Assembly (NCBI GenBank): GCA_964355035.1
Contig: CAYHCU010000001.1
Span: 1-53,638 of the forward strand
DNA length: 53,638 nucleotides
Direction: 5' to 3'
Origin: an uncultured Flavobacteriales bacterium
GTDB taxonomy: Bacteria; Bacteroidota; Bacteroidia; AKYH767-A; 2013-40CM-41-45
Shown here: in pieces, positions 18,839 to 52,849 of the stretch
Layout of the letters: each line of letters begins with the position of its first letter
Position numbering within the stretch: position 1 is the stretch's first letter
Made by a program: the position numbers and the translations under genes
Notes under the pieces: model-generated
Databases searched by the model: none
Seen by the model: only the letters and a program-made list of their open reading frames with translations
Told to the model about the DNA's origin: nothing

Positions 18839-19600
18839 TCAACGGTTGACCAACACTTTTTTAATAGAAACGAAATCTTTTCCTGCAATTCGAACGAAGT
18901 ACATTCCTTGTGCAAAACTTTCAGAACTAATTACTAAATTTTTATTTTCAAACACTTCTGTTTCTGAAACAACTTCTTTTCCGGTAAAATCTCTAATGCA
19001 AATATTTACATTTTCCTTTGATGAAATATTTATAACGTCTGTTGCCGGATTTGGAAATACCTGAATCAGATCATTCGAATTCTCAATATCCGAAACTGAA
19101 TTTATAACACAATTGATTACTCGTGATGAACATAGATCACCATTCAGATAAGTAATAATTTCCGAAATATCCGGAGTACATAGTTGACCGGACAATACGG
19201 TAAACCGAACCTTCACTAATGGAGTATTATTTGGAATCGCCTGCAAACTGTTTGACGTGAAACGAAGTGTTGAATCGCCGGTATTGAAATAGGACATGAC
19301 TTGTAAATTAAAAGTCAAATTCAAAACAGTGTCAAATACAAATTTTGACTGATCATATTTCAAGGAAAAATCAACAGCGTTAATTGTATCGTCAGAACTA
19401 AAAAACAATGGAAACTCTACAGTGCTTCCAAAAACTACTGCCTGAGACAAATCAAATACAATGCTATCTGATGCATTAATTGTTTCTGTTTTATCTGTCA
19501 AAATTGGACTAGTTTCTTTATCCCCTTGAATTCCTTTTGAAGTGCCCGGAATAAAACTTCCCGCAATTGACAAAATTAGAATTGTAATTATTTTTTTCAT
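18839..19600 (-). CDS. T9SS cargo: single cohesin-like domain + C-terminal sorting domain
   Basis: 253 aa. Signal peptide; IVFDLSQAVVFGSTVEFPLFFSSDDTINAVDFSLKYDQSKFVFDTV...STLRFTSNSL; C-terminal IQVFPNPATDVINISS...GMYFVRI. Homologous to the C-terminal third of the upstream 1135-aa protein. Confidence 0.7.
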   Translation of the reverse strand: MKKIITILILSIAGSFIPGTSKGIQGDKETSPILTDKTETINASDSIVFDLSQAVVFGSTVEFPLFFSSDDTINAVDFSLKYDQSKFVFDTVLNLTFNLQVMSYFNTGDSTLRFTSNSLQAIPNNTPLVKVRFTVLSGQLCTPDISEIITYLNGDLCSSRVINCVINSVSDIENSNDLIQVFPNPATDVINISSKENVNICIRDFTGKEVVSETEVFENKNLVISSESFAQGMYFVRIAGKDFVSIKKVLVNR

Positions 19601-25095: not shown

Positions 25096-25842
25096 TTAGT
25101 CTTTTACGCATCGGATGCTGAGGCCGTATGATTTAAGAACGTGGGAGCGAAAAACTTCAGACCTTTTATAATCCAAATAACGATACCAAGCTTCATTTCC
25201 GGAATATTCGGTTGAGGACCACCAAAATCCCATATATACTTTTCCGGTTGGTGAACTTATTGAGCCATCAAATAATCTGCATCCTCCGGCAAGTGCAGTA
25301 AAACCACTTTCATTTGTCGCCCACACTTCCCCATAAGCTTTCCAATTATCCGGTCCGGTGATTTTTAGTTTATCTCCTTCATTTGTTCCTCTCCAACTTG
25401 TTTTATCGGCCGATTCAATGCTCATACCTAAATAAATTTCCAGCTCTTTCCATTCCTGATCTGTAGGAATATGCCATCCTTCAGGTGCTAAATTATTGCT
25501 GTTATGTACAGCATACATATTATACAGAAGACCTGAATTATTGGCATTGTTATCATATTGTGAACAAGCTCCTGTTGTATCACTAGACCATGACAAATTA
25601 TCTGTTGTCGGAATAAAGTTAAGCGAATTTCCATTTCTGTATTTTGTAGTCTTCAAGTCTTCTGCCATCCACCATTGATTTCCAATTTTAATGGTCTTGT
25701 AAACATTGTTCTCAATATCTACTACAGTAGATGTTTCCGCCAAAATAATTTCTTTCTCTTTTTTACAACTGCTACTACAAATCGTAACTAAAGATAAAAC
25801 AAGAATAATAAATGAAGGTATGCTATAAATTCCTTTTTTCAT
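25096..25842 (-). CDS. FISUMP (Fibrobacter succinogenes major paralogous) domain lipoprotein
   Basis: 248 aa. Lipobox-like ICSSSC. DIENNVYKTIKIGNQWWMAEDLKTTKYRNG...GLLYNMYAV...APEGWHIPTDQEWKELEIYLG...NESGFTALAGG.R...GFWWSSTE...YGLSIRCVKD matches the TIGR02145-type pattern. Confidence 0.85.
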   Translation of the reverse strand: MKKGIYSIPSFIILVLSLVTICSSSCKKEKEIILAETSTVVDIENNVYKTIKIGNQWWMAEDLKTTKYRNGNSLNFIPTTDNLSWSSDTTGACSQYDNNANNSGLLYNMYAVHNSNNLAPEGWHIPTDQEWKELEIYLGMSIESADKTSWRGTNEGDKLKITGPDNWKAYGEVWATNESGFTALAGGCRLFDGSISSPTGKVYMGFWWSSTEYSGNEAWYRYLDYKRSEVFRSHVLKSYGLSIRCVKD

Positions 25843-30200: not shown

Positions 30201-30320
30201 AGCTGCGCCAATCACTGTTTCACCATTTTCATCAGTAATCTTACCCCTAATGGTGCCTTGGCTAAAAATTAAATTAGCAAAAATTAAATTTACCAGAATG
30301 ACAAGAAGTGCCTTTTTCAT
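27237..30320 (-). CDS. TonB-dependent receptor with N-terminal carboxypeptidase-regulatory-like domain (no SusD partner)
   Basis: 1027 aa. Signal peptide; GTIRGKITDENGETVIGAAVILK...ITDFDGNYSLKI (CarboxypepD_reg-like); plug region TLDFISSETIKKTGDASVSAAISRVSGVS...ITVRGIGDRY; long beta-barrel ending ...GLTYKI. Confidence 0.9.
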   Translation of the reverse strand: MKKALLVILVNLIFANLIFSQGTIRGKITDENGETVIGAAVILKSKPTVGAITDFDGNYSLKIVDSTSQELIISSISYLKVEETVNPVKGQVVIRNFVLKSSSKEINEVVITSKAVKAREYYVESMKRNSATTLDFISSETIKKTGDASVSAAISRVSGVSTNGSFITVRGIGDRYVKTAINGLRIPTLDPFTNNIKLDLFPASLVDNIIITKTASPDLSGDWSGAYLSVQTKDFPEQLNVIVETSIGYNSQSTFKDILSSQRSSTDWVGFDNTFREHSHTGFATSVANPSQYQEFVALGLGSYYNSLGVTQENWGEGTITGETYFKLGLVQLGLLAPAQINDPDAFNSAKLLYNNGPYRNQAFDVLNADVPKSGQSFPNNWNTTLRKAPLNFSQSFTFGNQTKLFKRELGFMVGYRYGSSTQYDANSVSNRAGVASDGFGNLVNVVSSYMSQEVSKETNGWSALINASYKLNTNNSFSLLFMPNFTGVNNVLSSIDNRDSSNFVISKSQFYEQRKQLIYQVRSEHYLPRSKSKIEFSASYTNGKSSAPDFKNVQYLKDPFTDQYQIGPEIRDGIHRYYRYLSDNLFDSQISFEIPVFHKADLVRKLKFGSAYQRNDRKNDQYDYSIDFGNYSSLTLQNDNLEKLFDFNNFNIYSFTDIYAVEHHTIDIFYNELLSDANHTFGNSSILAGYAMSDYSITDKMRISGGLRIEKADILTDVVKFDSLNYQENDPRRNYRDGLPLANAGELNEISFLPSVSFIYKLKNSEINTVNARFNFSQTIARPSIRELSDVAVFDYEYRAFVFGNSDLKMVHVDNYDLRLESYLKSGNNVSISFFYKKFKNHIELVKSVGYSWQNVDKSKVAGVELEGRKKIGKHFDFRANLSLIYSQTEFIRTRLDISGGVKNYIPQDTVSRSMFGQAPFVVNSMVTYTSDSIGLAVTLSYNVQGPRLVVAADVKEVPDIYELPRHLFDLKISKSIGKHFSMSLTVRDIFNSPIRRSYNYESGWDLNYDNYRYGTNFIVGLTYKI

Positions 30321-30402: not shown

Positions 30403-31485
30403 TTAGTTTTTAATTATTTTTTTATAACTTTCAATTCCATTTACGGATACTTTAACAAAATACTGTCCGACAGGCAATTTAGAAATATCGACTTTCTCCA
30501 CTTGAATACCGGAAATTTTTCCAATGTTTTTAGAAATGACTTCTGTACCAAGAATATTATAAATTGAATAAAATGCATCACCCTTATTTTCTACTGATTT
30601 AATTTCAAGACTGAAGCTATTCATTGTAGGATTAGGGAAAACATTAATTTCCGGATAAGTTATTGGTTTAGTAGTACTAATGCTGTTAAGCACAGAATAT
30701 GTCAGAAACGCTTCTTGAATTTCAGCACCTACAGGATTACTTGCAACATAATTCTCGACACCTCCATTAGGAGTTCCAACTTGAATATTTAATTCAAAAG
30801 AAAAATCTCCGTTCGTTGTTATTTGTGCGATTAACACTTTATTATCAATTGTATCCGGACCGATTGAACCATTTAATGATGCCCATGAACCATTGATTGT
30901 TGAAAATACAGGGCCATTTGTTCCATCATTTTGAGCATCGAACATTGCCATCTCAGTAGAAATACCTACGGCAGTTAATGCTTCAGGAGTACCGGCTAAA
31001 AGTCCATCCTGAATTGTCAAAGGAATGCCGGCAGTTGCATCATTATTTTGCAATACTCCATCCGCATTTACAACATTATTGTCTCCATCATCTAATGACT
31101 TAAGGATACCAAAATTACCGGTACAGGCTGCGCCTACCGATAACCATGAATCAAGCATTACAGTATTTTGTGAAGCCTGATTTTTATTGTATGTCGGTGA
31201 AGTTGCTCCGCGATCTTCGTTATTAAAAAACAAGGTAGTTGTTGCGATTCGAAGTTCGTGATCAGGAACACCATAAGCAGCCTGAAATTTATATCCTTGG
31301 AGTAAGTCTGCGTAAATTCTATAGGTTACAGAGCCAATTGGCAAAACTCCGCCTGTTAAATTTTGAGTAGCATCATTTGCATCTGAAACGTAATATTTTT
31401 CTACAATTACGTTTTCTAATCCATTTTGAGAATGGGCAGAATATGCAGATAAAAGAAAAAAGAAAGCTGGTATAATTTTTTTCAT
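30403..31485 (-). CDS. T9SS cargo: unnamed paralogous domain + CTD
   Basis: 360 aa. GLENVIVEKYYVSDANDA...GSVTYRIYADLLQGYKFQAAYGV...NTVMLDSWLSVGA...AGIPLTIQDGL...NGSWASL...VLIAQITTNGDFSFELNIQVGTPNGGVENYVASNP. C-terminal INVFPNPTMNSFSLEI...GQYFVKV. Confidence 0.8.
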   Translation of the reverse strand: MKKIIPAFFFLLSAYSAHSQNGLENVIVEKYYVSDANDATQNLTGGVLPIGSVTYRIYADLLQGYKFQAAYGVPDHELRIATTTLFFNNEDRGATSPTYNKNQASQNTVMLDSWLSVGAACTGNFGILKSLDDGDNNVVNADGVLQNNDATAGIPLTIQDGLLAGTPEALTAVGISTEMAMFDAQNDGTNGPVFSTINGSWASLNGSIGPDTIDNKVLIAQITTNGDFSFELNIQVGTPNGGVENYVASNPVGAEIQEAFLTYSVLNSISTTKPITYPEINVFPNPTMNSFSLEIKSVENKGDAFYSIYNILGTEVISKNIGKISGIQVEKVDISKLPVGQYFVKVSVNGIESYKKIIKN

Positions 31486-33184: not shown

Positions 33185-33334
33185 ATTGTCCATTATGCAC
33201 TGTCAATTGATAATGGATAGTGGATAATGGATAATGGATAATGGACAATTGATAATGGACATGTGTCAGCAGTCAGCTATCCATTGTCAATTATCAATTG
33301 TCCATTATCCATTGTCCTTTGTCAATTGTCAATT
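33185..33334. repeat. Heptamer-repeat hairpin, copy R (same orientation and same core as copy L)
   Basis: ...cactgtcaattgataatggatagtggataatggataatggataatggacaattgataatggaca-tgtgtcagcagtcagc-tatccattgtcaattatcaattgtccattatccattgtcctttgtcaattgtcaatt. Overlaps the stop codon of the 33329-35233 gene. Confidence 0.9.
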
Positions 33335-35233
33335 CTTCACCAACCGAGTCACTGCTGATTTCTCTCCTGAAATAAATTGCAATAAATAAATTCCGGATGA
33401 AAGCGATTTTAAATCGACTACTTTACTTCCGTTCATCATTTCGGTGATTACCACTTTTCCTAAAGCATCAATAACGTTTACGGTAACCGCTCCTGTTGAA
33501 AATTTATTGACATCTATGGTAATGAATTCTGAAGACGGATTAGGAAAGAAATGAATGCCTTGACTTTCTAAATCATTTACACCATTTACATTTACAAATA
33601 TAGACGATGATGTGCCTACGCATCCATTAAGATCTGTTACAGCTACTGAATAATCTCCATCCACTAAGGCTGTATAAGATTGAGCATTTGCTCCACCAAT
33701 TAAAACACCATTTAAGTACCACTGAAATGCTGCATATCCTTGCGTGCTTACTACATTTCCTACTGCACTAATCGCCGGAAATGGATTTGATAATTCTGTC
33801 AAGGACAACGTTGTTGTACTATCAAGACCATTGCTTGCTGTGGCTGGAAAATCATATGTTCCTGCTGTATAGCTATTCCCAAAATAAGTATAAACGGTTC
33901 CATTGCAATATTCACCATTTATTGTATTCGTGTACGGCTGAATAAAAGAATACTCAGCATCAAAATAAGCAACTTGATTTCCTCCTTCTAAACGACTCCA
34001 TGCAAATGCTGCTTGATTGACAACCGGATTAATTACCACTTTAGGCTGGGGATTTGTGAGCCCTGAATAATTATCTACATAGGTATAAAACAAATAATTC
34101 CAAGAAAATGGACTAGCCAAATTGAAATTATTATAACAATATGGCAAAATAGAATTCGTGCTGTCAAGGTAGGTTACCAAAAAATTGTTGTTTGCCGGAT
34201 CATAAGAAATATCAGGTTGAATATCATTCGTACTGTTGTCAATTATAGCCAAATAATTCCAATAATCTGAATAATGTGCGACCATATTATAGTACCCCAA
34301 AATGTCATAGTCAGTTCCATCACCTAAATAATCCCGCTCTAATAAAATTACTGCAGTCAGTCCTGAACTATCATTGTCTATTACATTTGACTGAACAGAA
34401 ATTTTAGGGTTTCTGCAAATATTATTGCTTGTAGCAAGACTAAACGAATCTACTCTTACCGGAGTTGTAAAATAATTATTTACTATCGCTTGATTGTGAC
34501 AAGAGTAAATATGCCCATTTCTATCCTCAGGGAAAGCTAGTTGTTCGTAAGCAATAAAGTAACGTCCATTTGATGCTGAGGCACTTTTTCCATAAGCTAT
34601 TGACAAATTTCTATAGTACGAGGAAGTGTTAGCTACCGGTAATTGACTAAAACTTGTTCCTCCATCAATAGAAATGTAATAACCAATGGAATCTTGCAAT
34701 GGACTAGTTTGAGAATAAGCTAACGCAATTGAATATGGCGAAGAAGCAAGGGAAGGATTACGATAATCTGTCGCCATTACAACATTATATGTTTGATTAG
34801 GAGAAACGCCTGTGTTTAATGGTGAATCAATATAAGAATAGCTATTAGCGTCATATCTATCAATAAAAATTAAATAGGTAGAATTTATTAAATCATGACG
34901 TACACCTACTAAAAACAAAGTAAGGTTAGCGGCGTCAGTTCCTGCAACAACAAGGTCCAGGGAACTATATTCTACACCTGAAAATGAATAGGAATCTACA
35001 GTCTCCCAAAATTCACCATTTGATTTCGAACAACGAATGGTTATGCCTCCTTCGCCTAAGCCTGCATCGTAAGTAGCAAAAGTTTCATAGACCCAGCCAT
35101 TGAAAGCTACGTCTAATTGCACTTTAGACTGATCAACTGTTGGATCGGGTTTTGGTTTAGTATCAGAGCCATTACCCATAACACTAAAAGTAGAAATCAA
35201 TGCAATAAAAAATAAGTAGATGTTCCTTTTCAT
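33329..35233 (-). CDS. T9SS cargo with possible BNR/Asp-box beta-propeller region
   Basis: ATG at 35233 gives MKRNIYLFFIALISTFSVMG (signal peptide). Asp-box-like SKSNGEFWE and SIDGGTSFS. An Ig-like unit (FQWYLNGVLIGGANAQSYTALVDGDYSVAVTDLNGC). C-terminal IHFFPNPSSEFITIDV...GIYLLQF. Confidence 0.6.
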   Translation of the reverse strand: MKRNIYLFFIALISTFSVMGNGSDTKPKPDPTVDQSKVQLDVAFNGWVYETFATYDAGLGEGGITIRCSKSNGEFWETVDSYSFSGVEYSSLDLVVAGTDAANLTLFLVGVRHDLINSTYLIFIDRYDANSYSYIDSPLNTGVSPNQTYNVVMATDYRNPSLASSPYSIALAYSQTSPLQDSIGYYISIDGGTSFSQLPVANTSSYYRNLSIAYGKSASASNGRYFIAYEQLAFPEDRNGHIYSCHNQAIVNNYFTTPVRVDSFSLATSNNICRNPKISVQSNVIDNDSSGLTAVILLERDYLGDGTDYDILGYYNMVAHYSDYWNYLAIIDNSTNDIQPDISYDPANNNFLVTYLDSTNSILPYCYNNFNLASPFSWNYLFYTYVDNYSGLTNPQPKVVINPVVNQAAFAWSRLEGGNQVAYFDAEYSFIQPYTNTINGEYCNGTVYTYFGNSYTAGTYDFPATASNGLDSTTTLSLTELSNPFPAISAVGNVVSTQGYAAFQWYLNGVLIGGANAQSYTALVDGDYSVAVTDLNGCVGTSSSIFVNVNGVNDLESQGIHFFPNPSSEFITIDVNKFSTGAVTVNVIDALGKVVITEMMNGSKVVDLKSLSSGIYLLQFISGEKSAVTRLVKN

Positions 35234-35404
35234 GATCTTTTTTTTTGTAAAAGTAGATAATTGTAAATAGGAAAATAATCTCTTTGAAATAAATTGCAAC
35301 TTAAAAATGTTAATATCTGTCGAAAAAATAAATCAAGTCAAAAAAATCACATGACATCAGTCATGCTAAAAACAAAAGGCCCTATTTGCCTTAAGAAAAC
35401 ATCA

Positions 35405-36313
35405 TCACGCCACTAAACAACGCTTATTTTCAAAATGTAACTGATGAACAATTCCGTCTGATAAACCAATTTGGGGAACAATAATTTCTTCCGCATTTGC
35501 AGCCTTCATCATACTAAGATATATTTTTGCCGCAGGAACAATTACATCTGCACGATCCGGACTTAATCCCCAAATCTCCATTCGGTCATCAATCGAATGA
35601 ATCTTTAATTCTCCGTAAAGCTCTTTCAATTTTTCAAAAGGCAAAGACTTGCTTTTTCGGCCAATCATTTTAAATATTTTATTGATATTCCCACCTGAAC
35701 CAATTGCTGTCATTGGCTGATGGTTAACTGTATTCACTCTCGTCCATTCTTTCATTTCTTCCCACAGCTCTTTACTAACTTTTCCTCCTAACCAACGTAA
35801 TGTTCCAACATCAAATGAATTTGAGGCCACTACTTCTCCTTTATCAAATACTGTTAATTCAGTACTTCCGCCACCAACATCAATATATAAATACGAATGG
35901 TCATTATTCAAAAACTCTTCAACATGATTTGAATAAATTAATTCAGCCTCATCTTTGCCTGAAATGATTTCAATTTGCAAGCCACATTGCTTTTTTACTT
36001 TGTCAACTAGTTCTTGTCCATTGATTGCTTCTCGCATTGATGCAGTTGCACAAGCTCGAAATGCTACAGGCTCGAAAACATCAATCAAAAGTTTAAACGC
36101 TTTCATTGTCTTTACAAAACGTTCTGCTTTCTCTTCATATATTCGCCCGGCTTTAAAAACATCTTCTCCCAATCTTAGTGGAATTCTTATCAACTCGGAC
36201 TTTTTAAAATGCACTACACCATGCTCCTCTATTGCATTACACAATAGCAGCCGAACGGCATTTGAGCCAATATCAATAGCAGCGTATTTCAATATTTTGT
36301 TTCTGGTTGTCAT
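35405..36313 (-). CDS. ppx: Exopolyphosphatase (Ppx/GppA family)
   Basis: ATG at 36313 gives MTTRNKILKYAAIDIGSNAVRLLL... with DVGGGSTEL and GSGGN motifs of the ASKHA-fold Ppx/GppA family. The track start at 36331 is GTG. Confidence 0.85.
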   Translation of the reverse strand: MTTRNKILKYAAIDIGSNAVRLLLCNAIEEHGVVHFKKSELIRIPLRLGEDVFKAGRIYEEKAERFVKTMKAFKLLIDVFEPVAFRACATASMREAINGQELVDKVKKQCGLQIEIISGKDEAELIYSNHVEEFLNNDHSYLYIDVGGGSTELTVFDKGEVVASNSFDVGTLRWLGGKVSKELWEEMKEWTRVNTVNHQPMTAIGSGGNINKIFKMIGRKSKSLPFEKLKELYGELKIHSIDDRMEIWGLSPDRADVIVPAAKIYLSMMKAANAEEIIVPQIGLSDGIVHQLHFENKRCLVA

Positions 36314-36330
36314 TTTCAAAAATACAATCA

Positions 36331-38463
36331 CTAAACAGAACTCCGTCTGCCGGTTTTTGGTTGTTTTAAAGTTGTCTTGTTAATAACCTTCGGACTTCCA
36401 AGCTTTGACGGCATTGTTTGAATCATTTTGTAAATTTCATCTTGTGCCTTAACAGATCGTCCTTTCTTCGCTACATACTCATTTGAACTGTCCTTTGAAT
36501 GAATTCTCGCCTTTGTATTGTCTCGAAATTGAATCATTACATATTCTAAAAGCTGAGCCTGCAATTGTGGATCATATATTGGAACAGAAACCTCTGAACG
36601 AAAATCCAAATTTCTGTTCATCCAATCACCGGAAGAAATAAAATATTTTTCATTGCCACCATGACAAAAAATAAATATTCTGCTATGTTCTAAAAATTTA
36701 TCGACAATACTGATTGCTTCAATATTTTCGCTCAACTCTTTTATTCCGGGAATTAATGAACAAATGCCTCGAATGATCAATCGAATTTTTACACCTGCTG
36801 AACTTGCTTCATACAATTTTGCAATCATGTCTTCATCCACCAGACTGTTCATTTTTAAAATAATCCATGCCTCTTTCCCTGCTTTAACATTCTCAATTTC
36901 TTTATTGATAAGGGTAACGAATCGCTTTCTGGTATTAAATGGTGAAACGATCAAATGCTTGAAATGGCCGGTCTTATAATTATTCTGATAAAATAAAAAC
37001 AGCTTTTCAATTTCACGCGTGATTGATTTATCCGAAGTCAGCAATGAATGATCACAATAAATTTTTGCTGTTTTTTCATTGAAGTTTCCTGTTCCGATAT
37101 GAGCATAATGAACAGTCTTATTTTCTTCTCTTCTGGTAATTAAAAATAGCTTTGAATGAACTTTCAATCCGGGCACACCAAAAATTACTTGTGCACCTGC
37201 CTCTTGTAATTTATCGGCATAATATATGTTCGTCTCTTCATCAAATCTTGCTTGTAGCTCTAAAACAGCCGTTACCTGTTTACCGTTTCTTACGGCATTG
37301 ATCAAAGCATTAATGATACTACTATTCACAGAAGCTCTATATAAAGTAATTTTAATTGAACTTACCTTTGGATCAATCGATGCTTCTCTGAGTAAATCTA
37401 TAATATGCAGAAATGATTGATACGGAAAAGCAAGTAGAATATCTTGTTTACGAATTACGGTAAACAAACTTTTTTGTCCGACAAAAGCAGGATGATCTAG
37501 CGGCGGAGGAATTTTATACCACAATTCTTTTCTTCCGATTTTTGGAAAATTTATAAAGTCTTTGAAGTTGTGATATTTCCCGCCGGGAATCAAATACTCT
37601 CGATCTTTCAACTTAATTTTCTTGACAATAAAATCAAGCAACTCTTTTGGTATGCGTTCATCGTAAACCAATCTTACCGGCTCACCCCGTTTCCTTTGCT
37701 TCACACTTTTTAAAACTTTCTCCACCCAACTTTTTGAAACATCTGTGTCGATGTCCAACTCTGCATCTCGGGTCATTTTAATAATATATCCTTCGATGGT
37801 TTCATAATCAAAAATTGAATAAATATCGTTCAAACAAAATCGTACAATATCCTCCAATAAAATTATACTCTTCTTTTCGGTTGTGGACGGCAAAACAATA
37901 ATTCGCGGCAATACATCTGTCGGTATCTCTATCAGTGAAAATAAATTTTTCTTTCCTGACTTCTGACTGGATTTAATCCTTACAGCTAAATAAATCATCC
38001 GATCTTTCAAATATGGAAAGTGCGGAGCCGAATCGATCATGATGGGAACTAAATTCGGATAAACATTCAAATGAAAATATTCCCTAACAAATAGCTCCTG
38101 AATAGGATTTAATTGCTTGTCACTGATAAAATAAATGTTTTCCTTTTCAAGTTGCCGAAGAATTTCATGAAAAAGCAAATCAAATTTTTTCTGTTGCTGA
38201 ATAACGATATGTTGAACTTTCTCAATTAACGCATTTGGATCAGTACCGATAATTTCCTTACCGTGTTTCCCGAATTTCATCATTCGGCGAATAGTCGCTA
38301 CACGAACTTTAAAAAATTCATCGCGATTATTGCTAAAAATGCCAAGAAAACGCAATCGTTCCAATAATGGAACCGTTTCATCTTCTGCCTCCTGTAACAC
38401 ACGCGCATTAAACGACAACCAACTCAGATCGCGGTTGATCAAAGTACTGTCTTTCTTTTTCAT
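36331..38463 (-). CDS. ppk1: Polyphosphate kinase 1
   Basis: 710 aa. INRDLSWLSFNARVLQEA, FLGIFSNNRDEFF.VRV and two PLD-like HSK/H.. motifs (LKVHSKLFLI..., EHSRIFIF). Full-length PPK1 layout. Confidence 0.95.
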   Translation of the reverse strand: MKKKDSTLINRDLSWLSFNARVLQEAEDETVPLLERLRFLGIFSNNRDEFFKVRVATIRRMMKFGKHGKEIIGTDPNALIEKVQHIVIQQQKKFDLLFHEILRQLEKENIYFISDKQLNPIQELFVREYFHLNVYPNLVPIMIDSAPHFPYLKDRMIYLAVRIKSSQKSGKKNLFSLIEIPTDVLPRIIVLPSTTEKKSIILLEDIVRFCLNDIYSIFDYETIEGYIIKMTRDAELDIDTDVSKSWVEKVLKSVKQRKRGEPVRLVYDERIPKELLDFIVKKIKLKDREYLIPGGKYHNFKDFINFPKIGRKELWYKIPPPLDHPAFVGQKSLFTVIRKQDILLAFPYQSFLHIIDLLREASIDPKVSSIKITLYRASVNSSIINALINAVRNGKQVTAVLELQARFDEETNIYYADKLQEAGAQVIFGVPGLKVHSKLFLITRREENKTVHYAHIGTGNFNEKTAKIYCDHSLLTSDKSITREIEKLFLFYQNNYKTGHFKHLIVSPFNTRKRFVTLINKEIENVKAGKEAWIILKMNSLVDEDMIAKLYEASSAGVKIRLIIRGICSLIPGIKELSENIEAISIVDKFLEHSRIFIFCHGGNEKYFISSGDWMNRNLDFRSEVSVPIYDPQLQAQLLEYVMIQFRDNTKARIHSKDSSNEYVAKKGRSVKAQDEIYKMIQTMPSKLGSPKVINKTTLKQPKTGRRSSV

Positions 38464-39387: not shown

Positions 39388-41967
39388 TCAATTCTTTATC
39401 AAAATACGCTGAATCTTTCCTTTATCTGTAATAACGCTAACAATATAAATTCCCGGATTTAATTTTTCGAGATTCAATTTAGCTTCAACTGATGGTTGCT
39501 GAGATTGAGAAACCACCAATTTACCAAGCATATCATGTACGCTGAGCTGATGTATTTTTCCTTTTCTCACCACCACATTTAACTCTGCTGTTGTAGGATT
39601 TGGATAAACGGACAAATCCTCAGAAAGCAGAATATTGTTATCGATTCCGGCAACAATTGAAACTGTACTAGAAACTGTATTCGTTACCAACGGTGCATTG
39701 AAATCAAAATAAATGTAAGCTGTATTAGTAATAACTGTTCCAACTCCGGAACCGATTCTTCTATTCATTCGATAATTCACAAATCCCCGACTCAAAGTAG
39801 AATTACTTGCGCTGTCCGGCAAATTGATGCTGTTGAAATTAAAACGTAACACTCGTCCGGGAAGCAATTGCGTAACTACTGCATGACTTGATGAAATGAA
39901 TTCAAAAGTAGAAATATCCAAATCATCATCAAGTGTATCGAGTATATACAGATTCTCCGCGGGAACACTGCCTGTGTTTTGAAAATTGATGGCGAAAGTG
40001 AAAGAGTAATCCGAAGTATCAGCGTACTCAGGACTTACCCATTTTTCATTTGGCCCAAAAGATGAGAGTACATAATAACAATTTGAAATACTATTATTGG
40101 ATGAATCCAACTCACCAACAATAGGAATACTCAAGGTGAGACAAACTGTATCATTCTGTACTGCTGCAGGATCTGTTTGCAAAATAATATTGAAATCGGA
40201 ATTTAAATTCACTGCCGGGAAATCCCCGATAATCCAATGAATCGTATCCCCTGAAATATAAGTTGGCGTCAAAGCGCCTGGTGCAGGACTAACATAAGAA
40301 ACATTTCCGGAAGTGATTACATACACGTCACCTGAAACATTAAAACATTCTCCACCAAATCGCATAAAATTATCGCCTGCAGAGAAATCTACTCTCGTAT
40401 TACCACCCGGAATAAATTCACCCGGATGTATTGAATTTGCAATCAAATCAAAATCCGAAGAGCAGCTCAGACCAAAATCCATGATGTCAAAAATAGAATC
40501 CGATAATGTTAAATCTGTTGTATAAACTCCGCCAACAAGACAAGTCATACGAAATGGAATCAAATTCGTATCCACATTAACAGTGTATAATCCTAATGGT
40601 GCTCTGAAAAAATATTCACCGTTACTATTTGTATAACTAATTTGCACAGTGATTCCGGCAGAATTTAAATGAACAGGAATGTTTCGCAAACCATTTTCTC
40701 CACTATCAAATATGCAATTCTGATTGATATCAAAATAAGCTCGACCTGATATACTCCAATCAATCGGACATCCTGATGATGGTTCACACAATGGCAAGTC
40801 TGCAAGAAGTACATCTGAACTGTCATTGATAAATCGATTTGCCAAACAATGAATGCCTGTAAGCTGAATTTCTAAACTACCGATTGTATCAAATGCCGGT
40901 AAACAATTAATCGGATTAAAAGCTAACGACAAAACATCTAAACTAGATGGCATTGCGTTTAGAGTTTGAATGTTATTACCGGAGGCCAACAAAAATCGTA
41001 ATGTATTCGGACAATCCGGAATACTTGCTAATTGATTAAACATACAATTCAATGTTACCAGTTGCTTTGGTAACGAATCAATTATTGTAACAAAATTATC
41101 GTTAAAACTTAAGTACGTTAAACTATCAGGCAGAGGTGACAATGATGCTAGCTGGTTCATCCCAACCTTTAACGTTTTTAACGTGCTTGGTACTTGAGTT
41201 AATGATGTTAGCTGATTTTGCTCAAGCTCTATACTGTTCAAATTAGAACCAAAGGAAGCTATTCCCCCGATTAAATTAGTATTTGCATTTAAGTAAACCA
41301 AAGATGAAGGCATAAGCGGCAATGTGACCAAATTATTCGAAAAGCAAGACAAATAAGATAAGTTTGCAGGAAGCAACGGAAGTACACTTAAACTATTATC
41401 GCCTAATTTCAAATTTACCAAAGAAGACGGCAAAGTTCCCAGTGAATCAATTTGATTATGTTCAAATTCAGCATTTACAATTCCTGATGGAAGAACTACT
41501 GTGCCCAATACTAAATTGCTATTCAACTTTAACGTAGTCAGCGTACTTGGTAAGGTAGGAACAGACACTATCAAGTTAGAATTACAATTCAATGTCTCAA
41601 GACTATCCGGAAGATTTGTTATTGTGTCAATTTGATTTAATCCTGCATAGAGATTTCGCAAACTTGTCGGTAACACAGGAATTGAAGTTAAATTATTATT
41701 AGAACAATCTAACGATATAAGATTTGTAAAATATTCAAGACCTTCAATTTGATTGATTGACCATCCATTGCAACTAATTGAAGCTACTATCGGCAATACA
41801 GGACAAGTTATATCCAAAGAATCTCCGATTAAACAAAGGTCTAACCCTTCATTGATCAAATAATTTCTCCAATTTGCATCTGAGAGATAAACGTTTTGAG
41901 ATATCGATCTTTGAGTTCCAGATAATATGCACAAGAATGTTAGTGCAAATAATATTTTCTTTTTCAT
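39388..41967 (-). CDS. T9SS cargo: leucine-rich repeat protein + SdrD-B-like/CARDB-like domains + CTD
   Basis: ATG at 41967 gives MKKKILFALTFLCILSG. About 15 units of L..L.c..N.L.s.P.LP.sL. GRAYFDINQNCIFDSGENGLRNIPVHL (SdrD B-like). C-terminal LSVYPNPTTAELNVVV...GIYIVSV. Confidence 0.8.
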   Translation of the reverse strand: MKKKILFALTFLCILSGTQRSISQNVYLSDANWRNYLINEGLDLCLIGDSLDITCPVLPIVASISCNGWSINQIEGLEYFTNLISLDCSNNNLTSIPVLPTSLRNLYAGLNQIDTITNLPDSLETLNCNSNLIVSVPTLPSTLTTLKLNSNLVLGTVVLPSGIVNAEFEHNQIDSLGTLPSSLVNLKLGDNSLSVLPLLPANLSYLSCFSNNLVTLPLMPSSLVYLNANTNLIGGIASFGSNLNSIELEQNQLTSLTQVPSTLKTLKVGMNQLASLSPLPDSLTYLSFNDNFVTIIDSLPKQLVTLNCMFNQLASIPDCPNTLRFLLASGNNIQTLNAMPSSLDVLSLAFNPINCLPAFDTIGSLEIQLTGIHCLANRFINDSSDVLLADLPLCEPSSGCPIDWSISGRAYFDINQNCIFDSGENGLRNIPVHLNSAGITVQISYTNSNGEYFFRAPLGLYTVNVDTNLIPFRMTCLVGGVYTTDLTLSDSIFDIMDFGLSCSSDFDLIANSIHPGEFIPGGNTRVDFSAGDNFMRFGGECFNVSGDVYVITSGNVSYVSPAPGALTPTYISGDTIHWIIGDFPAVNLNSDFNIILQTDPAAVQNDTVCLTLSIPIVGELDSSNNSISNCYYVLSSFGPNEKWVSPEYADTSDYSFTFAINFQNTGSVPAENLYILDTLDDDLDISTFEFISSSHAVVTQLLPGRVLRFNFNSINLPDSASNSTLSRGFVNYRMNRRIGSGVGTVITNTAYIYFDFNAPLVTNTVSSTVSIVAGIDNNILLSEDLSVYPNPTTAELNVVVRKGKIHQLSVHDMLGKLVVSQSQQPSVEAKLNLEKLNPGIYIVSVITDKGKIQRILIKN

Positions 41968-42187
41968 AGTGATGGGTATAGCATTAAGTAATAATTCCGA
42001 ACCTAAAATATAAAAATATTTCAATTTCCAAGAAATCAAAAATCAGCAGATGAAACATTTTAAATCAATAGCGGCATTCTGTTGATTCATGCTTTTCTTT
42101 CGTTTTGGAGGCAAAACCTGTATTAATGCACAGGAAAGTCAATTTTTTTGCACATAATTGCCTACTTTCGCACCTCAATTTCAAACA

Positions 42188-43574: not shown

Positions 43575-46500
43575 ATGAAGAAATTATTTTCTGCGGCAAT
43601 TCTATTGCTCATGTCCTGGACATCTAGTGCACAAACATTCTACTGGAATGGGAATTCCCCGATTTTTGATAATACTACAGATACAGTTCCAATTGTGGTT
43701 TCTGGTTTACCAACAGTGATTGATACAAGTTTTGGAGTTGCTCATATTTGCATGAATATTACTCATACTTACAAAGCCGATTTGTTGATCAAATTAGTTT
43801 CACCAAGTGGTTTATCCGTTACTCTTATTTCCGGTATTGGTGGATCTGCTGATAATTTCTTGGGTACATGCGTGGGAATGGACGGAACATCGTTTAGTAA
43901 TTCACAAGCTCCATACACAGGAATATTTCTTCCAACGGGTGATGTAAGTTTATTTAACAACGGACAAAATCCAAACGGAACATGGCTCTTCATTGTGAAA
44001 GATCAGGCAACTGCAGATACGGGTTCTATCCATCAGGCAAGTATTGTTTTCGTAAATAATCCTCCTGTGAACGGAAACACCGGTGGTGGTGGTGGCCCAA
44101 CAGGAACTTACAATTGTCCGACTTGTGTTTGTCCGGGTGGAGCTGCAGGATGCGATCTTCTTCCTGACATGACATCTTCTGCAAAAGAAATTTTGGTGAA
44201 TCATAATGAAACCCCCGGAGCACTATACATTTCTAATGCTACTCCTAATATCGGTTATGGTCCAATCGACATCTTTGGAATTGACTCTTGCTTTTGCGGA
44301 ACAACCTATGTACCCTGCGGAACTGTTTGTCCGAATGGTCAGGACATAAAGCATATAGTTAAACAACGTATCTACCAAAAAATTCCGGGACAAGATACAC
44401 TGGGATTCTATGATCGCATAGCTGGCGCAATGACTTATCATGCAACGCATGGTCACTTACATGTTGATCATTGGGCAAATTATACATTGCGAACTGCAAC
44501 ATCTAATCCTGATGCAACCACATGGCCTATCGTTGGTACGGGTGTGAAACAAAGTTTTTGTCTAATTAATCTTGGAACATGTTCAGGAAATCCCGGAGAA
44601 TGTGTAGACAATAACGGAAATACACTAACAACTTTCCCGAATAACAATCTCGGTTTTCATACCGGTTGCGGACTTACGCAAGGAATTTATCCGGGTAATT
44701 ATGATGTTTACAGTATTTCACTTAACGATCCTATTCCATTAGTCAACGTTTGCAACGGACTTTACTACATTGTCTCTATTACTGACCCCGATAATAATTT
44801 CCTGGAAAGCGATGAAACAAATAATTGGGTCGCTGTTCCAATTACACTTACACAACAAAACAATTCACCAACTATCACCGCAAGTGGTTCAACATTAATT
44901 TGCCAGGGTAGCAGCGTCACACTTACTTCAAATACTGCGAGTAATTATCTGTGGTCAACCGGCGCAACAACTCAATCAATTGTGGTTTCTTCTGCAGGAT
45001 CTTATACAGTGTCTTCGAATTGCGGTACTTCGGTTGCAACTTCTTCTCCGGTTATTGTATCAATTATTCCATTAAACACAACTGCAACTGCAAGTCCAAC
45101 ACCTGTTTCCTGCAATGGTAATTCAATACAATTAAATGCAAATGCAACTTCCGGAGGAACACAGAATGTTCCGCTTACATTTAGCAGTAATTTGCAAGTT
45201 GTAATTCCTGATAACAATGCTACAGGAGTTACTTCTGCTATTACGGTTTCCGGAATTAATCCTGCAACGTTAACTGCGTCTTCTGTAGTTTCAGTAAAAC
45301 TTAATCTTACTCATACTTATGACGGCGATCTTGCTGTCTCTTTAATTTCTCCTTCCGGAAATACTATTTTTCTTAGTAACCGTCGGGGAAGTGGAGGTGA
45401 TAATTTTATCAATACCGTTTTTTCAATGTCTGCTGCAACATTGGTAAGCGCCGGCACTGCTCCTTTCACTGGTTCATACAAACCTGATGGAACTTTTAGT
45501 TCGCTGACAGGAAATGCAAATGGAACCTGGCTATTGAAAGTACAGGATCTTGCCGGTGTTGACACAGGAAGAATTCAAAATTGGAATATAATTATCAATA
45601 CAGCAGTCCCGGAGACATTCAATTATTCCTGGACAAGCATTCCTGCGGGATTTACTTCTTCATTACAAAATCCAACTGATATTCCAATAATATCAAGCAC
45701 TTATTCTGTTGTAGTAACAAGTACCGGAACAGGTTGCACAACTACAAATTCGGTTTTAGTATCTGTACCGGAAGTTCTAACAATTTCCGGTTTCACTCCG
45801 GCAAGTGGTGTACCTGGAACATTAGTTGTAATTAATGGTTCCGGATTTACTTCTGCATCATCGGTTAGTTTCGCCGGAATAAATGCAAGTAGTTTCACAG
45901 TAATCAGTCCAACACAAATTGAAGCAATCGTTCCCAATAGCGTAGCAACAAGTGGTGTTATTTGCATAACCAATAACACTGGCTGTACTGTTTGCAGTAT
46001 TTCCAATTTCACTATCAATTCCGGAATAACATTAAACCTGAAATTATACCTCGAAGGATTTTATATTTCAAGCGGAATTATGCAAGCCTCTGTTGATCCA
46101 ATTAGCTATCCAACTTTGTGCGATACTATTGTTGTTGAATTGCATCAGGCGACTTCGCCTTACAGCTTTGTTCAGAGTTTTAAAAGTACGATCAATACTG
46201 CCGGTGAAGGAAGTTTTGTTTTCCCATCTAATCTTTTGAATAATTCATATTTCATCAGTGTACATCACCGGAACTCTATTGAAACATGGAGTGCCTCACC
46301 GGTAACATTTACAACGGCAATAACAACCTATATCTTCAGCGATGCAATTACCAAAGCACAAGGAAACAATATGCGAAATCTTGGTGATGGTAATTTCGCC
46401 CTTTTCTCAGGCGATGTAAACCAGGAAGGCACTGTTGAATTTATCGACATGAATAGCGTACAAAGTGCATCTTTGATCAACTTAATCGGCTATCAACCAC

Positions 46501-46586
46501 AAGACCTCAATGGCGATGGTATTGTTGAATCTGCAGATTATAGCTTAGTAGAAAATAATTTGCTGAAGTTTAAGGTTCGGCCGTAG
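43575..46586 (+). CDS. Secreted multidomain protein: P domain + lysyl-oxidase-like catalytic domain + P domain + IPT/TIG + dockerin-like pair
   Basis: 1003 aa. Two proprotein-convertase P-domain patterns (ITHTYKADLLIKLVSPSG...NGTWLFIVKD.A..DTG; LTHTYDGDLAVSLISPSG...NGTWLLKVQDLAGVDTG). YHATHGHLHVDHW, VKQSFCL and GIYPGNYDVY...ITDPDNNFLESDETNNW are colinear with the LOX catalytic domain. ISGFTPASGVPGTLVVINGSGF (IPT). GDVNQEGTVEFID and DLNGDGIVESAD. Confidence 0.7.
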   Translation: MKKLFSAAILLLMSWTSSAQTFYWNGNSPIFDNTTDTVPIVVSGLPTVIDTSFGVAHICMNITHTYKADLLIKLVSPSGLSVTLISGIGGSADNFLGTCVGMDGTSFSNSQAPYTGIFLPTGDVSLFNNGQNPNGTWLFIVKDQATADTGSIHQASIVFVNNPPVNGNTGGGGGPTGTYNCPTCVCPGGAAGCDLLPDMTSSAKEILVNHNETPGALYISNATPNIGYGPIDIFGIDSCFCGTTYVPCGTVCPNGQDIKHIVKQRIYQKIPGQDTLGFYDRIAGAMTYHATHGHLHVDHWANYTLRTATSNPDATTWPIVGTGVKQSFCLINLGTCSGNPGECVDNNGNTLTTFPNNNLGFHTGCGLTQGIYPGNYDVYSISLNDPIPLVNVCNGLYYIVSITDPDNNFLESDETNNWVAVPITLTQQNNSPTITASGSTLICQGSSVTLTSNTASNYLWSTGATTQSIVVSSAGSYTVSSNCGTSVATSSPVIVSIIPLNTTATASPTPVSCNGNSIQLNANATSGGTQNVPLTFSSNLQVVIPDNNATGVTSAITVSGINPATLTASSVVSVKLNLTHTYDGDLAVSLISPSGNTIFLSNRRGSGGDNFINTVFSMSAATLVSAGTAPFTGSYKPDGTFSSLTGNANGTWLLKVQDLAGVDTGRIQNWNIIINTAVPETFNYSWTSIPAGFTSSLQNPTDIPIISSTYSVVVTSTGTGCTTTNSVLVSVPEVLTISGFTPASGVPGTLVVINGSGFTSASSVSFAGINASSFTVISPTQIEAIVPNSVATSGVICITNNTGCTVCSISNFTINSGITLNLKLYLEGFYISSGIMQASVDPISYPTLCDTIVVELHQATSPYSFVQSFKSTINTAGEGSFVFPSNLLNNSYFISVHHRNSIETWSASPVTFTTAITTYIFSDAITKAQGNNMRNLGDGNFALFSGDVNQEGTVEFIDMNSVQSASLINLIGYQPQDLNGDGIVESADYSLVENNLLKFKVRP

Positions 46587-49608: not shown

Positions 49609-51279
49609 TTATTTTTTTGCTGCTTCTTTCGCCCAAGAATCTTTCAACGTAACTGTTCTGTTCAAAACAATATTATTATCTGTTGAATCCGGATCGACAC
49701 AGAAATATCCTTTGCGGACAAACTGGAATTTATCTCCGCTCTTTGCTGTTTTCAAAATTGGTTCGGCATAAGCGACCTTTATTACCTCCAGACTTTTCGG
49801 ATTCAGATGATCTTTGAAATCTCCTTCTGCATTGGAGGGGTCTTCAGGTAGAAATAATCTGTCGTACATACGCAATTCACATTGTACTGCCTGCGGAACA
49901 CTTACCCAATGAAGAGTTCCCTTCACACTTACACCACTTGTGTCATTTCCACTTTTGCTTTCAGGAATATAATTACAATGTATCTCTGTAACATTTCCAT
50001 TGTCATCTTTTTTGAAGGAAACACATTCGACAATATATGCATGTTTCAACCGAACTTTTAATCCCGGGCCTAAACGAAAATATTTCTTTGTCGGCTCCTC
50101 CATAAAATCATCCCGTTCAATCCACAACTCTTTGGAGAATGGAATTTCACGCATACCGCCTTTGTCTTCAGCTTCCGGATTATTTTCGCCGTGCAACATT
50201 TCAACATGACCATCAGCGTAATTATCGATGATCAATTTAATCGGATCCGTTACTACCATCACGCGGTTTGAACGTTTGTTCAGATCTTCGCGAATGAAAT
50301 ATTCCAGCAGGCCAACATCGATCATATTCTCTCGTCTTGCTACTCCAATGCGATCGCAAAATTCGCGTATACTTTCAGGAGTATAACCACGACGACGATA
50401 ACCGCTGATCGTTGGCATTCGTGGATCGTCCCAACCGTTTACATGTTTTTCATTTACTAACTGAAGTAATTTACGTTTACTCATCACAGTGTACGTGAGA
50501 TTCAAACGCGCAAATTCATACTGATTACTTGGAAAAATATTCAGCTTCTCAATAAACCATTCGTACACCGGACGATGGACTTCAAACTCTAATGTGCAAA
50601 TTGAATGTGTAATGTTTTCTATGGAATCGCATTGTCCATGTGCGTAATCGTACATAGGATAAATGCACCATTTGTCACCCGTGCGATGATGTTTTACATG
50701 ACGAATACGATACATCAACGGATCACGAAAATGCATATTCGGAGAAGTCATGTCGATCTTTGCGCGTAATGTTTTCTCGCCATCTTTGAATTCTCCTCCG
50801 CGCATACGAGCGAATAGCGAAAGATTTTCTTCAACACTTCTGTCACGATACGGACTATTTTTTCCCGGCTCAGTAGGCGTTCCTTTCATTGAAGCAATTT
50901 CCTCCGCAGAAGAATCATCAACATAAGCAAAACCTTTTTTGATAAGATCGCAAGCGTAATCATATAGCTGCTCAAAATAATCCGAAGCATAAAATTCATT
51001 GCTCCATTCAAAACCTAACCAGCGAATATCATTTTTTATACTCTCAACATATTCTGTATCTTCAGTTACCGGATTTGTATCATCGAAACGAAGATTTGTT
51101 TTTCCACCAAACTGTTGCGCTAAACCAAAATTGAGGCAAATCGATTTTGAATGACCAATATGTAAATATCCATTTGGCTCCGGAGGGAAGCGTGTGAGTA
51201 CACGTCCGCCATGCTTTCCATTTTTTACATCTTCGGCAACAATCTCCTCAAGAAAATTTTGACTTTTTTCAATTGACAT
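49609..51279 (-). CDS. glnS: Glutamine--tRNA ligase
   Basis: 556 aa, colinear with E. coli GlnRS: [72 protein letters not shown]. Confidence 0.95.
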
Positions 51280-51280
51280 A

Positions 51281-52849
51281 TTAATTCGATTTTGCAGACA
51301 TTGACTGCATTATTTTATTTACTCCATTATTTAATCTGGCAATCACTTCTTCTTTACCCAGCAATTCAATTGTTCCTGAAAGTTCCACGCCTGTACCTAA
51401 TCCGCTGAGTAAAACTCTGAATAATTGCAATACATCGCCTGGCTTAAGTTGATGAGCTGCCGCTGTCTCTTTAAATTTCAAATCGACATCTGCTCCGGAG
51501 AAAGAATCCATCTGCTTTAAAACATCAGATAATGCTATAAAGAAACTCTCAAATCCGGGTTTCCATTTTTTAGCAATAACTTGTTCGTCGTAAGTGGTTG
51601 GCGCAATGAATAAGTATGTTTCCTTTTCAACAAATTCATTTTCAAATTGAACTCGCTCCAGTAATAATGAAACTACTTTAGACAAATATTCGCGTGAAAG
51701 TCTTTTGTCGCTGTCATTAAATTTATAAGTAGCCGCAACCATTGGTTTTAACAACGCCACCAAGTTTTCAATTGGTTGAAGACGCAGGTAATGCTGATTA
51801 AACCATTTTGTTTTCTCGGGATCAAATTTTGCTCCGCTTTTATTTACTCTTTCCAAAGAAAAATCGTGAATTAATTCGTCTAAGGAAAAAATTTCCTGAT
51901 CACCACTCGGATGCCAGCCTAATAAAACTAACATATTTATAAAAGCAGCAGGAATGTAATTTTTCTCTCTGTAACCTGACGACAACTCTCCTGTAACCGG
52001 ATCTGTCCAATTCAAAGGAAAGACAGGAAATCCTAAACGATCACCATCGCGTTTGCTTAACTTTCCATTTCCATCAGGTTTTAATAACAATGGAAGATGC
52101 GAAAATTTCGGCATCACTTTTTCCCAACCTAAATATCGATATAACAAAACATGCAATGGTGCCGATGGCAACCACTCTTCTCCGCGAATAACATGTGTGA
52201 TCTGCATTAAGAAATCATCGACTACATTTGCTAAATGATACGTCGGCATTCCATCACTCTTGAAAAGCACTTTGTCGTCGAGTTGTGATGTATGAACTCT
52301 AACTTCACCGCGAATCAAATCATGCACCAACACTTCTTCATCAGCCGGAATCTGCAACCGAATTACAAATGAATCACCTGCATGAATTCTTCTTTCAACT
52401 TCATCAGGTGAAAGAGTTAGTGAATTGACTAATTGTTTTCTGGTGATTGCATTGTATGAGAAAGCCGATTTCTCCGCTTCCATTTTTTTTCTTAACGCAT
52501 CTAATTCCATTTCACTATCGAAAGCATAATAAGCATGACCGGTTTGTACCAACTTCTCAGCATACTGCCGATAAATCGCCATCCGTTCGCTTTGCCGATA
52601 AGGTGCATGCGGCCCATCGCCGAAACCAACACCTTCATTCGGACAAATGCCACACCATTTCAATGAATCAATGATGTATTGCTCCGCTCCAGGCACATAA
52701 CGATTTTGATCAGTATCTTCGATTCGCAGAATGAAATCACCATTATGCTTTTTTGCAAACAGATAATTATACAATGCTGTTCTCACTCCACCCATATGAA
52801 GAGGCCCGGTTGGACTGGGAGCAAAACGTACGCGAACTTTTCTTTCCAT
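51281..52849 (-). CDS. gltX: Glutamate--tRNA ligase
   Basis: 522 aa. [46 protein letters not shown] (KMSKS-type). Confidence 0.95.

Follow-up and report, generated by a model that had tools for sequence, protein, structure and literature searches.

The gene at positions 43575..46586 of the window, the whole 53,638-nucleotide stretch of contig CAYHCU010000001.1 from an uncultured Flavobacteriales bacterium (GCA_964355035.1) analyzed here, encodes a multi-domain protein assigned to the family of lysyl oxidases (LOX). It consists of one ATG-start open reading frame (ORF) on the forward strand, stop codon included, and its product has 1003 amino acids (aa). The best explanation overall, at a probability of roughly 0.7, is that the product is a Sec-exported, modular, copper-dependent amine oxidase of this family. 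Homology, residue conservation, fold, and domain architecture are shown by the analysis, and copper binding, formation of the lysine tyrosylquinone (LTQ) cofactor, activity, substrate, location, and a cohesin partner are inferred.

Lysyl oxidases are important in animal matrix biology and fibrosis. To our knowledge, no active-state LOX structure exists, and we know of no established role for the bacterial relatives. LOX proteins of bacteria, including Bacteroidetes, are known already; the protein of the window is a divergent, under-annotated member with an unusual set of modules. The LOX assignment is a gain in annotation and an entry point to bacterial LOX biology, and would not surprise a specialist. 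The gene and its modules are as follows, each with the basis of its assignment in brackets.

43575..46586 (+): whole gene (single ORF; the end coordinate counts the stop codon)
43575..43634 (+): Sec-type signal peptide, aa 1-20, MKKLFSAAILLLMSWTSSAQ (read by eye from the sequence)
43635..44072 (+): P domain 1, aa ~21-166 (Pfam PF01483 and a purpose-built P-domain hidden Markov model, HMM)
44073..44114 (+): Gly/Pro-rich linker NGNTGGGGGPTGTYN (sequence composition)
44115..44867 (+): LOX-like catalytic domain, aa 181-431 (PF01186, family profile against 5ZE3, AlphaFold2, Foldseek)
44154-44159 (+): calcium-site partner D194-L195 in CDLLPD (matched by eye to LOXL2 D549-L550)
44436..44462 (+): copper-site motif YHATHGHLH, aa 288-296, with H289, H292, H294, and H296 (LOXL2 alignment)
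44547..44549 (+): K325, predicted LTQ lysine, in VKQSFCL, aa 324-330 (aligns with LOXL2 K653)
44709..44711 (+): Y379, predicted LTQ tyrosine, last Y of GIYPGNYDVY, aa 370-379 (aligns with LOXL2 Y689)
44805..44825 (+): calcium-site motif ESDETNN, with E411, D413, N416, and N417 (LOXL2 alignment)
44868..45176 (+): Ig-like spacer, aa ~432-534, of no confident family (weak PKD match)
45177..45614 (+): P domain 2, aa 535-680 (PF01483 and the same HMM)
45780..45980 (+): IPT/TIG domain, aa ~736-802 (PF01833)
46002..46409 (+): module X2, aa 810-945, always directly N-terminal of the dockerin (co-occurrence with dockerin)
46410..46565 (+): dockerin type I-like module, aa 946-997, with two calcium-type loops (PF00404)

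The lysyl oxidase-like domain

Recognition of the middle domain relies on its relatives, since a single sequence is insufficient for the LOX call and the addition of homologs settles it. In a full-length Pfam scan, P_proprotein is found in two stretches (91.9 bits; cut-off 21) and Dockerin_1 is above its cut-off (23.6 bits; 22.9), and CARDB (17.5 bits; 22.7) and Lysyl_oxidase (16.6 bits; 20.4) are below theirs. Scanned alone, aa 181-431 score 20.6 bits for Lysyl_oxidase (PF01186; E 3.6e-4), just at the threshold. The HMMER comparison proposed in the initial annotation is positive for P_proprotein; for Lysyl_oxidase it is below the cut-off with the whole protein and at threshold with the domain alone. 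Single-sequence phmmer searches of the PDB with the whole protein and with the domain return chance matches only, to kallikrein and a Fab. Membership in PF01186 is borderline for the single sequence and is reached through the family: the initial search yielded 39 relatives, many with a precomputed PF01186 match, and 9 of 12 close homologs with a full-length domain match this model (best E 1.4e-8).

Profiles extend the homology to named members of the family. A 50-domain profile reaches entries that NCBI calls 'lysyl oxidase family protein' in Flavobacteriales (E 6.5e-72) and Ferruginibacter (7.6e-39), and actinobacterial entries of the same name in Actinosynnema (5.8e-9) and Saccharothrix (8.6e-8). 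A 47-sequence family profile matches human LOXL2 (PDB 5ZE3) in a single colinear stretch with E 1.9e-13. The initial annotation had placed the colinearity at residues ~195-425; the identity of the domain stands on this profile match and on Foldseek, and colinearity by sequence holds for the C-terminal two thirds only (aa ~285-430), the N-terminal third being matched by structure alone. Taken together, the comparisons support the middle domain as a divergent LOX-family catalytic domain in which all catalytic residues are intact.

LOXL2 numbering follows the 5ZE3 construct, residues 318-774 (PMC5899467), and was applied to the family-profile alignment. The four motifs quoted in the initial annotation are present where it placed them (aa 288-296, 324-330, 370-379, and 402-418, the last being ITDPDNNFLESDETNNW), and its reading of the copper-site histidines and both LTQ positions agrees with the LOXL2 alignment, in which the calcium site aligns as well. 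H292, H294, and H296 align with H626, H628, and H630, which are copper ligands in LOXL2 (zinc in the crystal), and K325 and Y379 align with K653 and Y689, which are the LTQ precursors (PMC5899467). The LOXL2 calcium ligands are D549, L550, E722, D724, N727, and N728 (PMC5899467); the last four align with E411, D413, N416, and N417, and D549-L550 resemble by eye the D194-L195 pair of the conserved CDLLPD. Human LOXL2 and animal LOX proteins (PF01186) thus share with the window protein an HxHxH copper site on a beta-hairpin, a beta-sandwich core, a Lys in a K-x-S-F-C-L strand, a Tyr in a G-x-x-D-x-Y strand, and a six-ligand calcium site made of D-L near the N-terminus and E-x-D-x-x-N-N. A counterpart of human LOX H289 is also present, and happens to bear the same number.

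Prokaryotic LOX homologs had been called rare in the initial annotation, which is wrong for this subfamily: in the genome scan 159 stretches encode relatives, 80 loci of which were retained as the genome relatives, and the top 150 representative clusters (50% identity) include 109 with a full-length LOX domain. Each of H292, H294, H296, K325, C329, D377, Y379, N416, N417, and L195 is kept in 80/80 genome relatives. D194 is kept in 79/80, E411 in 78/80, and the upstream H289 in 77/80; position 413 alternates between Asp (49) and Asn (31). Among the representative clusters, the histidine triad is found in 108 of the 108-109 aligned, and K325 in 110/110. The 47-sequence alignment, which descends to 26% identity and includes NCBI-named LOX family proteins, leaves H292, H294, H296, K325, and C329 as the only invariant columns, with Y379 conserved in at least 90%. 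D377, Y379, E411, and N417 join the invariant set in a trimmed, diverse 25-sequence alignment.

The predicted structure has the fold of a LOX catalytic domain. The AlphaFold2 model based on the 47-sequence alignment has a mean predicted local distance difference test (pLDDT) score of 93.6 and a predicted template modeling (pTM) score of 0.89; this alignment was used in place of a low-diversity one of 12 sequences, whose model (pLDDT 42) was discarded. In a Foldseek search of the PDB, chains A and B of 5ZE3 are the sole matches with E <= 0.001 (4e-6 and 6e-6; probability 1.00), and all others have E >= 0.02. The model was compared with the description of LOXL2 by secondary-structure positions. 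In it, a long beta-hairpin formed by domain residues 96-109 and 114-126 bears the histidine motif at its turn, like LOXL2 segment ES2, K325 lies in the next strand, like LOXL2 beta8, and Y379 closes a short strand, like beta10. A large separation of the histidine triad from the Lys/Tyr pair was to count against the assignment in the initial annotation; because Lys and Tyr are themselves 16.6 A apart in the crystal of the LOXL2 precursor (PMC5899467), this point could not be settled by distances measured in a static model.

The window protein also differs from the animal enzymes. Identity to human LOXL2 is ~15% and the TM-score ~0.45, and extra Cys-rich loops are present at aa 239-252 and 336-365. 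In place of SRCR domains and a BMP-1-type propeptide, the protein has P domains, Ig-like and TIG domains, and a dockerin, and its bacterial host, unlike animals, has no known collagen or elastin substrate. The animal-type five-disulfide pattern is absent, LOXL2 C625 and C685 being aligned with T291 and N375; C329, the counterpart of LOXL2 C657, is the sole invariant cysteine of the 47-sequence alignment. Disulfide variability is normal across LOX lineages (PMC6452851), so the five-disulfide pattern marks the animal clade and not the family.

In a 2015 survey (Grau-Bove et al., PMC4448552), Bacteroidetes are among the phyla that carry LOX, all but three of the prokaryotic proteins have no domain other than LOX, and bacterial LOX lacks the first histidine (H289). 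The present subfamily shares with the prokaryotic homologs its family membership by profile search, the histidine triad, and the Lys and Tyr, with only 28-31% identity to the named actinobacterial LOX family proteins. It departs from the surveyed proteins in being multi-domain and in having H289.

Module architecture and relatives

The flanking domains were each rescanned against Pfam as separate fragments, and the module order given in the initial annotation is upheld. The signal peptide MKKLFSAAILLLMSWTSSAQ was confirmed by eye, with a basic n-region, a hydrophobic core, and a small-residue c-region; most relatives have an equivalent N-terminus ending in A-Q-T/S-F. P domain 1 matches P_proprotein (PF01483) with 40.1 bits (E 4.1e-10; aa ~59-157) and P domain 2 with 63.6 bits (E 1.8e-17; aa 571-673), both well over the cut-off, and the purpose-built HMM matches aa 21-166 with E 4e-65 and the second copy with E 7.8e-45. 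Each copy is 37-42% identical to orthologs of the other. The linker NGNTGGGGGPTGTYN varies in both length and sequence among aligned relatives. The Ig-like spacer has at best a weak PKD match (E 0.36) and is kept in the 34 closest relatives. The TIG domain scores 34.9 bits for PF01833 (E 1.6e-8; cut-off 20.9), and the NCBIfam model CoaZ_rpt_PGGG covers the same stretch with 32.6 bits. Module X2 has zero matches in Pfam and PDB searches and accompanies the dockerin in the 11 relatives with a dockerin ending. As the initial annotation had noted, a C-terminal domain (CTD) of the type IX secretion system (T9SS) is missing: Por_Secre_tail, CHU_C, and the NCBIfam CTD models give no match in the window protein.

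All 80 retained loci are titled Bacteroidota or Bacteroidetes. The closest relatives, with 68-89% identity, come from metagenome-assembled genomes (MAGs) named 'Bacteroidota bacterium' or assigned to Ferruginibacter/Chitinophagaceae. An identical eight-module order is found in six Bacteroidota MAG loci (L001-L005 and L007), with 84-89% identity in the LOX domain. The Bacteroidota proteins with P and LOX domains share a core of signal peptide, N-terminal P domain, Gly/Pro linker, and LOX domain; this core, with P domain 1 upstream of LOX by BLASTP, is present in 80/80 genome relatives. Examples are a protein of ~440 aa with PF01483 and PF01186 (P0071, Ferruginibacter sp.) and the ~607-aa P-LOX-PKD-CTD proteins that make up most of the relatives with a T9SS CTD. 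Beyond this core the window protein has the Ig-like domain, the second P domain, TIG, X2, and the dockerin, and it is without the T9SS CTD.

The C-terminal module is interchangeable among the 80 relatives, of which 43 end in a T9SS type A CTD, 11 in X2-dockerin, and 26 in other ways. Many of the last group (among them L010, L013, L019, L029, and L033) end in a third conserved module of ~70 aa with no Pfam assignment and the pattern ...NWxxxxNW..PP..C.EI.I.P...EC.L...Q....GAKITV...KKFRV.GNL.IQ, which may be a further tag for sorting or anchoring.

In the wider set of representative clusters, the LOX domain directly follows the signal peptide in 77/109. A P domain is found upstream only in 25 clusters and downstream only in 13, and P domains on both sides occur in one (P0170, 1006 aa). 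The two-P-domain, dockerin-ended form is rare, and the P domain is recurrent in either position. By analogy with the LOX propeptide, the P domain could be an N-terminal pro-domain; this idea is weakened by the 77 clusters with LOX directly after the signal and the 13 with a downstream P domain only.

A large Bacteroidota subfamily is publicly annotated only after its accessory domains. Orthologs are named 'proprotein convertase P-domain-containing protein', 'T9SS type A sorting domain-containing protein', or 'subtilisin-like proprotein convertase family protein', and NCBI already labels some P-domain-plus-LOX proteins as LOX family. An incomplete literature search returned no paper on the P-domain/LOX architecture, the dockerin-ended form, a role of Bacteroidota LOX, or T9SS-linked LOX. 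Re-annotation would bring to light a class of extracellular copper oxidases that is common among bacteria of freshwater, soil, and wastewater. The many small, disulfide-stabilized bacterial LOX domains would also supply material for structural and mechanistic studies of LTQ formation, and the recurrent P-domain fusion, together with possible cohesin-dockerin docking, offers handles for finding the targets of the enzymes.

Predicted chemistry, location and alternatives

The mechanism proposed for the window protein begins with export by the Sec pathway. By homology to LOXL2, aa 181-431 would fold as a disulfide-rich beta-sandwich stabilized by a calcium site of D194/L195, E411, D413, N416, and N417, and H292, H294, and H296 would bind Cu(II) at the tip of the beta-hairpin. 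Copper and O2 would then oxidize Y379, to which K325 would add to give the LTQ cofactor autocatalytically, as judged from LOXL2 and from HTU-LOX. The latter is the recombinant enzyme of the archaeon Haloterrigena turkmenica, an active, BAPN (beta-aminopropionitrile)-sensitive amine oxidase of relaxed specificity (PMC6452851). The mature enzyme would convert primary amines to aldehydes by oxidative deamination, with release of NH3 and H2O2. Lysine side chains of extracytoplasmic peptides or proteins would be the most likely substrates; as the only characterized prokaryotic LOX is promiscuous, free amines may be substrates too. In a peptidyl-lysine role the enzyme would cross-link or modify proteins of the surface, the matrix, or prey, and in a free-amine role it would scavenge nitrogen or produce H2O2; the analysis is compatible with either.

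The P, Ig-like, and TIG domains would act as binding or spacer modules, and X2-dockerin takes the place of the T9SS CTD of most relatives. A macromolecular, cell-surface setting is favored by the number of binding-type modules and by the extracellular sorting that most relatives show, and the share of relatives with a T9SS CTD argues for a family active at the cell surface or beyond it. The initial annotation had the enzyme docked to the surface through its dockerin-like module. The module scores 31.6 bits for PF00404 as a fragment (aa 946-997; cut-off 22.9) and contains two 12-residue calcium-type loops, DVNQEGTVEFID and DLNGDGIVESAD, both conserved in orthologs; its best PDB matches are cellulosomal type I dockerins, at weak E values of 0.02-0.1. 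Beyond the dockerin (46566-46583), the window protein ends in ...VRP and the L003 ortholog in ...QRP, and almost all dockerin-ended orthologs (within L001-L035) terminate in a conserved ...(V/A/L/E)HP or ...IAP. Such docking is plausible, and a candidate partner is encoded in the window.

18839..19600 (-): candidate docking partner, a 252-aa cohesin-like protein with a T9SS type A CTD (Pfam Cohesin and Por_Secre_tail)

This ORF lies 24 kb from the LOX gene and scores 24.3 bits for Cohesin (PF00963; cut-off 24.1) and 50.8 bits for Por_Secre_tail. Of the 27 members of its family, 15 match PF00963 (best E 4e-8). An ortholog is found ~78 kb from the L001 ortholog of the LOX gene, on one 224-kb contig; the contig belongs to MAG JADKIH01. 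The probable function of X2-dockerin is to attach the enzyme, in a calcium-dependent manner, to this or a similar cohesin-like surface protein with a T9SS anchor; the link between the cohesin-like protein and the LOX gene is inferred. A possible role of this protein is that of a minimal, T9SS-anchored scaffoldin to which dockerin-ended proteins attach. The cellulosomal type I dockerin-cohesin pairs of Clostridia likewise involve a ~60-aa C-terminal module with two calcium-type loops that exceeds the Dockerin_1 cut-off, and a cohesin-like domain encoded elsewhere in the same genome, an assignment that is marginal here. In contrast to the clostridial system, there is no cellulosome context, the cargo is a predicted oxidase and not a glycoside hydrolase, and the putative carrier is a 252-aa T9SS cargo in place of a multi-cohesin scaffoldin.

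A more speculative extension, to which only low odds are given, is that a cohesin-dockerin pair of Bacteroidota serves as an alternative to direct T9SS sorting, the CTD-anchored cohesin-like protein capturing or carrying out dockerin-ended enzymes. If true, an enzyme that generates H2O2 or cross-links proteins would be displayed by a minimal, non-cellulosomal system, and the T9SS CTD, X2-dockerin, and the third ~70-aa module would be alternative localization tags.

Several observations weigh against a surface-acting, modular LOX. The Lysyl_oxidase score of the whole protein stays under its cut-off, and NCBIfam scans give no LOX model match to the window protein. The Foldseek TMq to 5ZE3 is only 0.42-0.49, with 15-16% identity, and the only LOXL2 disulfide cysteines with counterparts are C657 (C329) and C663 (C336, by eye). 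The cohesin match exceeds its cut-off by a narrow margin, and the cohesin-like family profile has no significant match among the solved cohesins in the PDB (E 0.37). All-against-all clustering of the ORFs in the 80 loci reveals no neighbor family that travels with the LOX gene and no conserved neighbor hinting at a substrate, a copper chaperone, or a partner. A Bacteroidota protein with a Sec signal and no T9SS CTD would by default stop in the periplasm; this missing CTD and the promiscuity of the archaeal enzyme keep a periplasmic or scavenging alternative alive.

That alternative has a real, if clearly smaller, chance of being correct. The same enzyme would be a periplasmic or released oxidase, scavenging or antimicrobial, that acts on free amines such as polyamines, amino sugars, free lysine, or peptide antibiotics to yield ammonium and H2O2, and not a surface-docked cross-linker; the dockerin would serve as a calcium-binding stabilizer only. 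Dockerin-like modules are common in organisms without cellulosomes, and the neighbor-gene comparison found no collagen- or elastin-like substrate gene. The sole characterized prokaryotic LOX oxidizes many small amines and some antibiotics (PMC6452851). Set against this are the T9SS CTD of most relatives, the five putative modules for binding or spacing, superfluous in a soluble oxidase of small molecules, and the cohesin-like T9SS cargo encoded in the same genome.

It is highly improbable that the domain, as a LOX/CARDB-like beta-sandwich, is catalytically dead and has only an adhesive or structural role in a surface protein. The last ~50 residues of the domain, calcium motif included, do match CARDB (PF07705, E 6e-4) in 12/12 members, and the PDB profile search also matches the CARDB domains 2KL6 and 3IDU. 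The CARDB-like part, with the E-x-[DN]-x-x-N-N motif, corresponds to aa ~379-431 (44709-44867). The family profile further draws giant proteins with 13-26 CARDB-type repeats that share this motif. These match the last ~50 profile positions and so inflate raw match counts; the raw representative matches (14031, 7088, and 1278) are not a measure of family size, and full-length single-stretch matches were counted instead. The similarity suggests that the LOX beta-sandwich core and CARDB share ancestry. However, the CARDB-like part does not include the copper histidines, K325, or Y379, and these are invariant in all 80 genome relatives and in 108-110 clusters, which would not be expected without selection for catalysis, and the whole-domain fold matches LOXL2 and not CARDB alone.

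A subtilisin/kexin-like proprotein convertase, as the database names of some relatives and the two genuine P domains would have it, is refuted by the domain scans, in which Pfam and NCBIfam find no peptidase S8 or other protease domain in the 1003 aa and the region between the P domains is occupied by the LOX-like domain and the Ig-like spacer.

Genomic neighborhood

The neighbors of the LOX gene are housekeeping genes, encoding PPX, PPK1, a histidine phosphatase, a YgjV-like membrane protein, a DEAD-box helicase, GlnRS, and GluRS. Synteny with PPK, the histidine phosphatase, the YgjV-like protein, and the DEAD-box helicase is confined to the four closest MAGs. A promoter and terminator scan around the gene gave counts equal to the shuffle expectation, with a tool that does not cover Bacteroidota promoters.

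Genes for cargo with a T9SS type A CTD are unusually dense in the window.

10565-12442 (-): T9SS cargo gene
16313-18643 (+): T9SS cargo gene
19753-23160 (-): T9SS cargo gene
25854-27203 (-): T9SS cargo gene
30403-31485 (-): T9SS cargo gene
33329-35299 (-): T9SS cargo gene
39388-42039 (-): T9SS cargo gene

The cargo types include PKD repeats together with one dockerin-type loop, SBBP/SprB repeats, Big_7 repeats, and LRR with DUF7619. The ORFs that start at 10565 and 19753 each contain one dockerin-like calcium-type loop.

Other genes of the window include a polyphosphate metabolism cluster at 35405-38463 (-), conserved in the closest MAGs, in which a Ppx/GppA phosphatase and polyphosphate kinase 1 (four PPK domains) are followed by the histidine phosphatase. 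Genes for a glutaminyl-tRNA synthetase-like protein and glutamyl-tRNA synthetase lie back to back on the same strand at 49609-52849 (-). A single-polypeptide pyruvate:ferredoxin/flavodoxin oxidoreductase of 1180 aa, with POR_N, POR, EKR, 4Fe-4S, and TPP_enzyme_C domains, is encoded at 5743-9288 (-) and hints at an anaerobic or microaerobic metabolism of the host. A 247-aa Fib_succ_major protein (PF09603, E 1.6e-43) is encoded at 25096-25842 (-), adjoining a T9SS cargo gene, and a TonB-dependent receptor is encoded nearby at 27237-30320.

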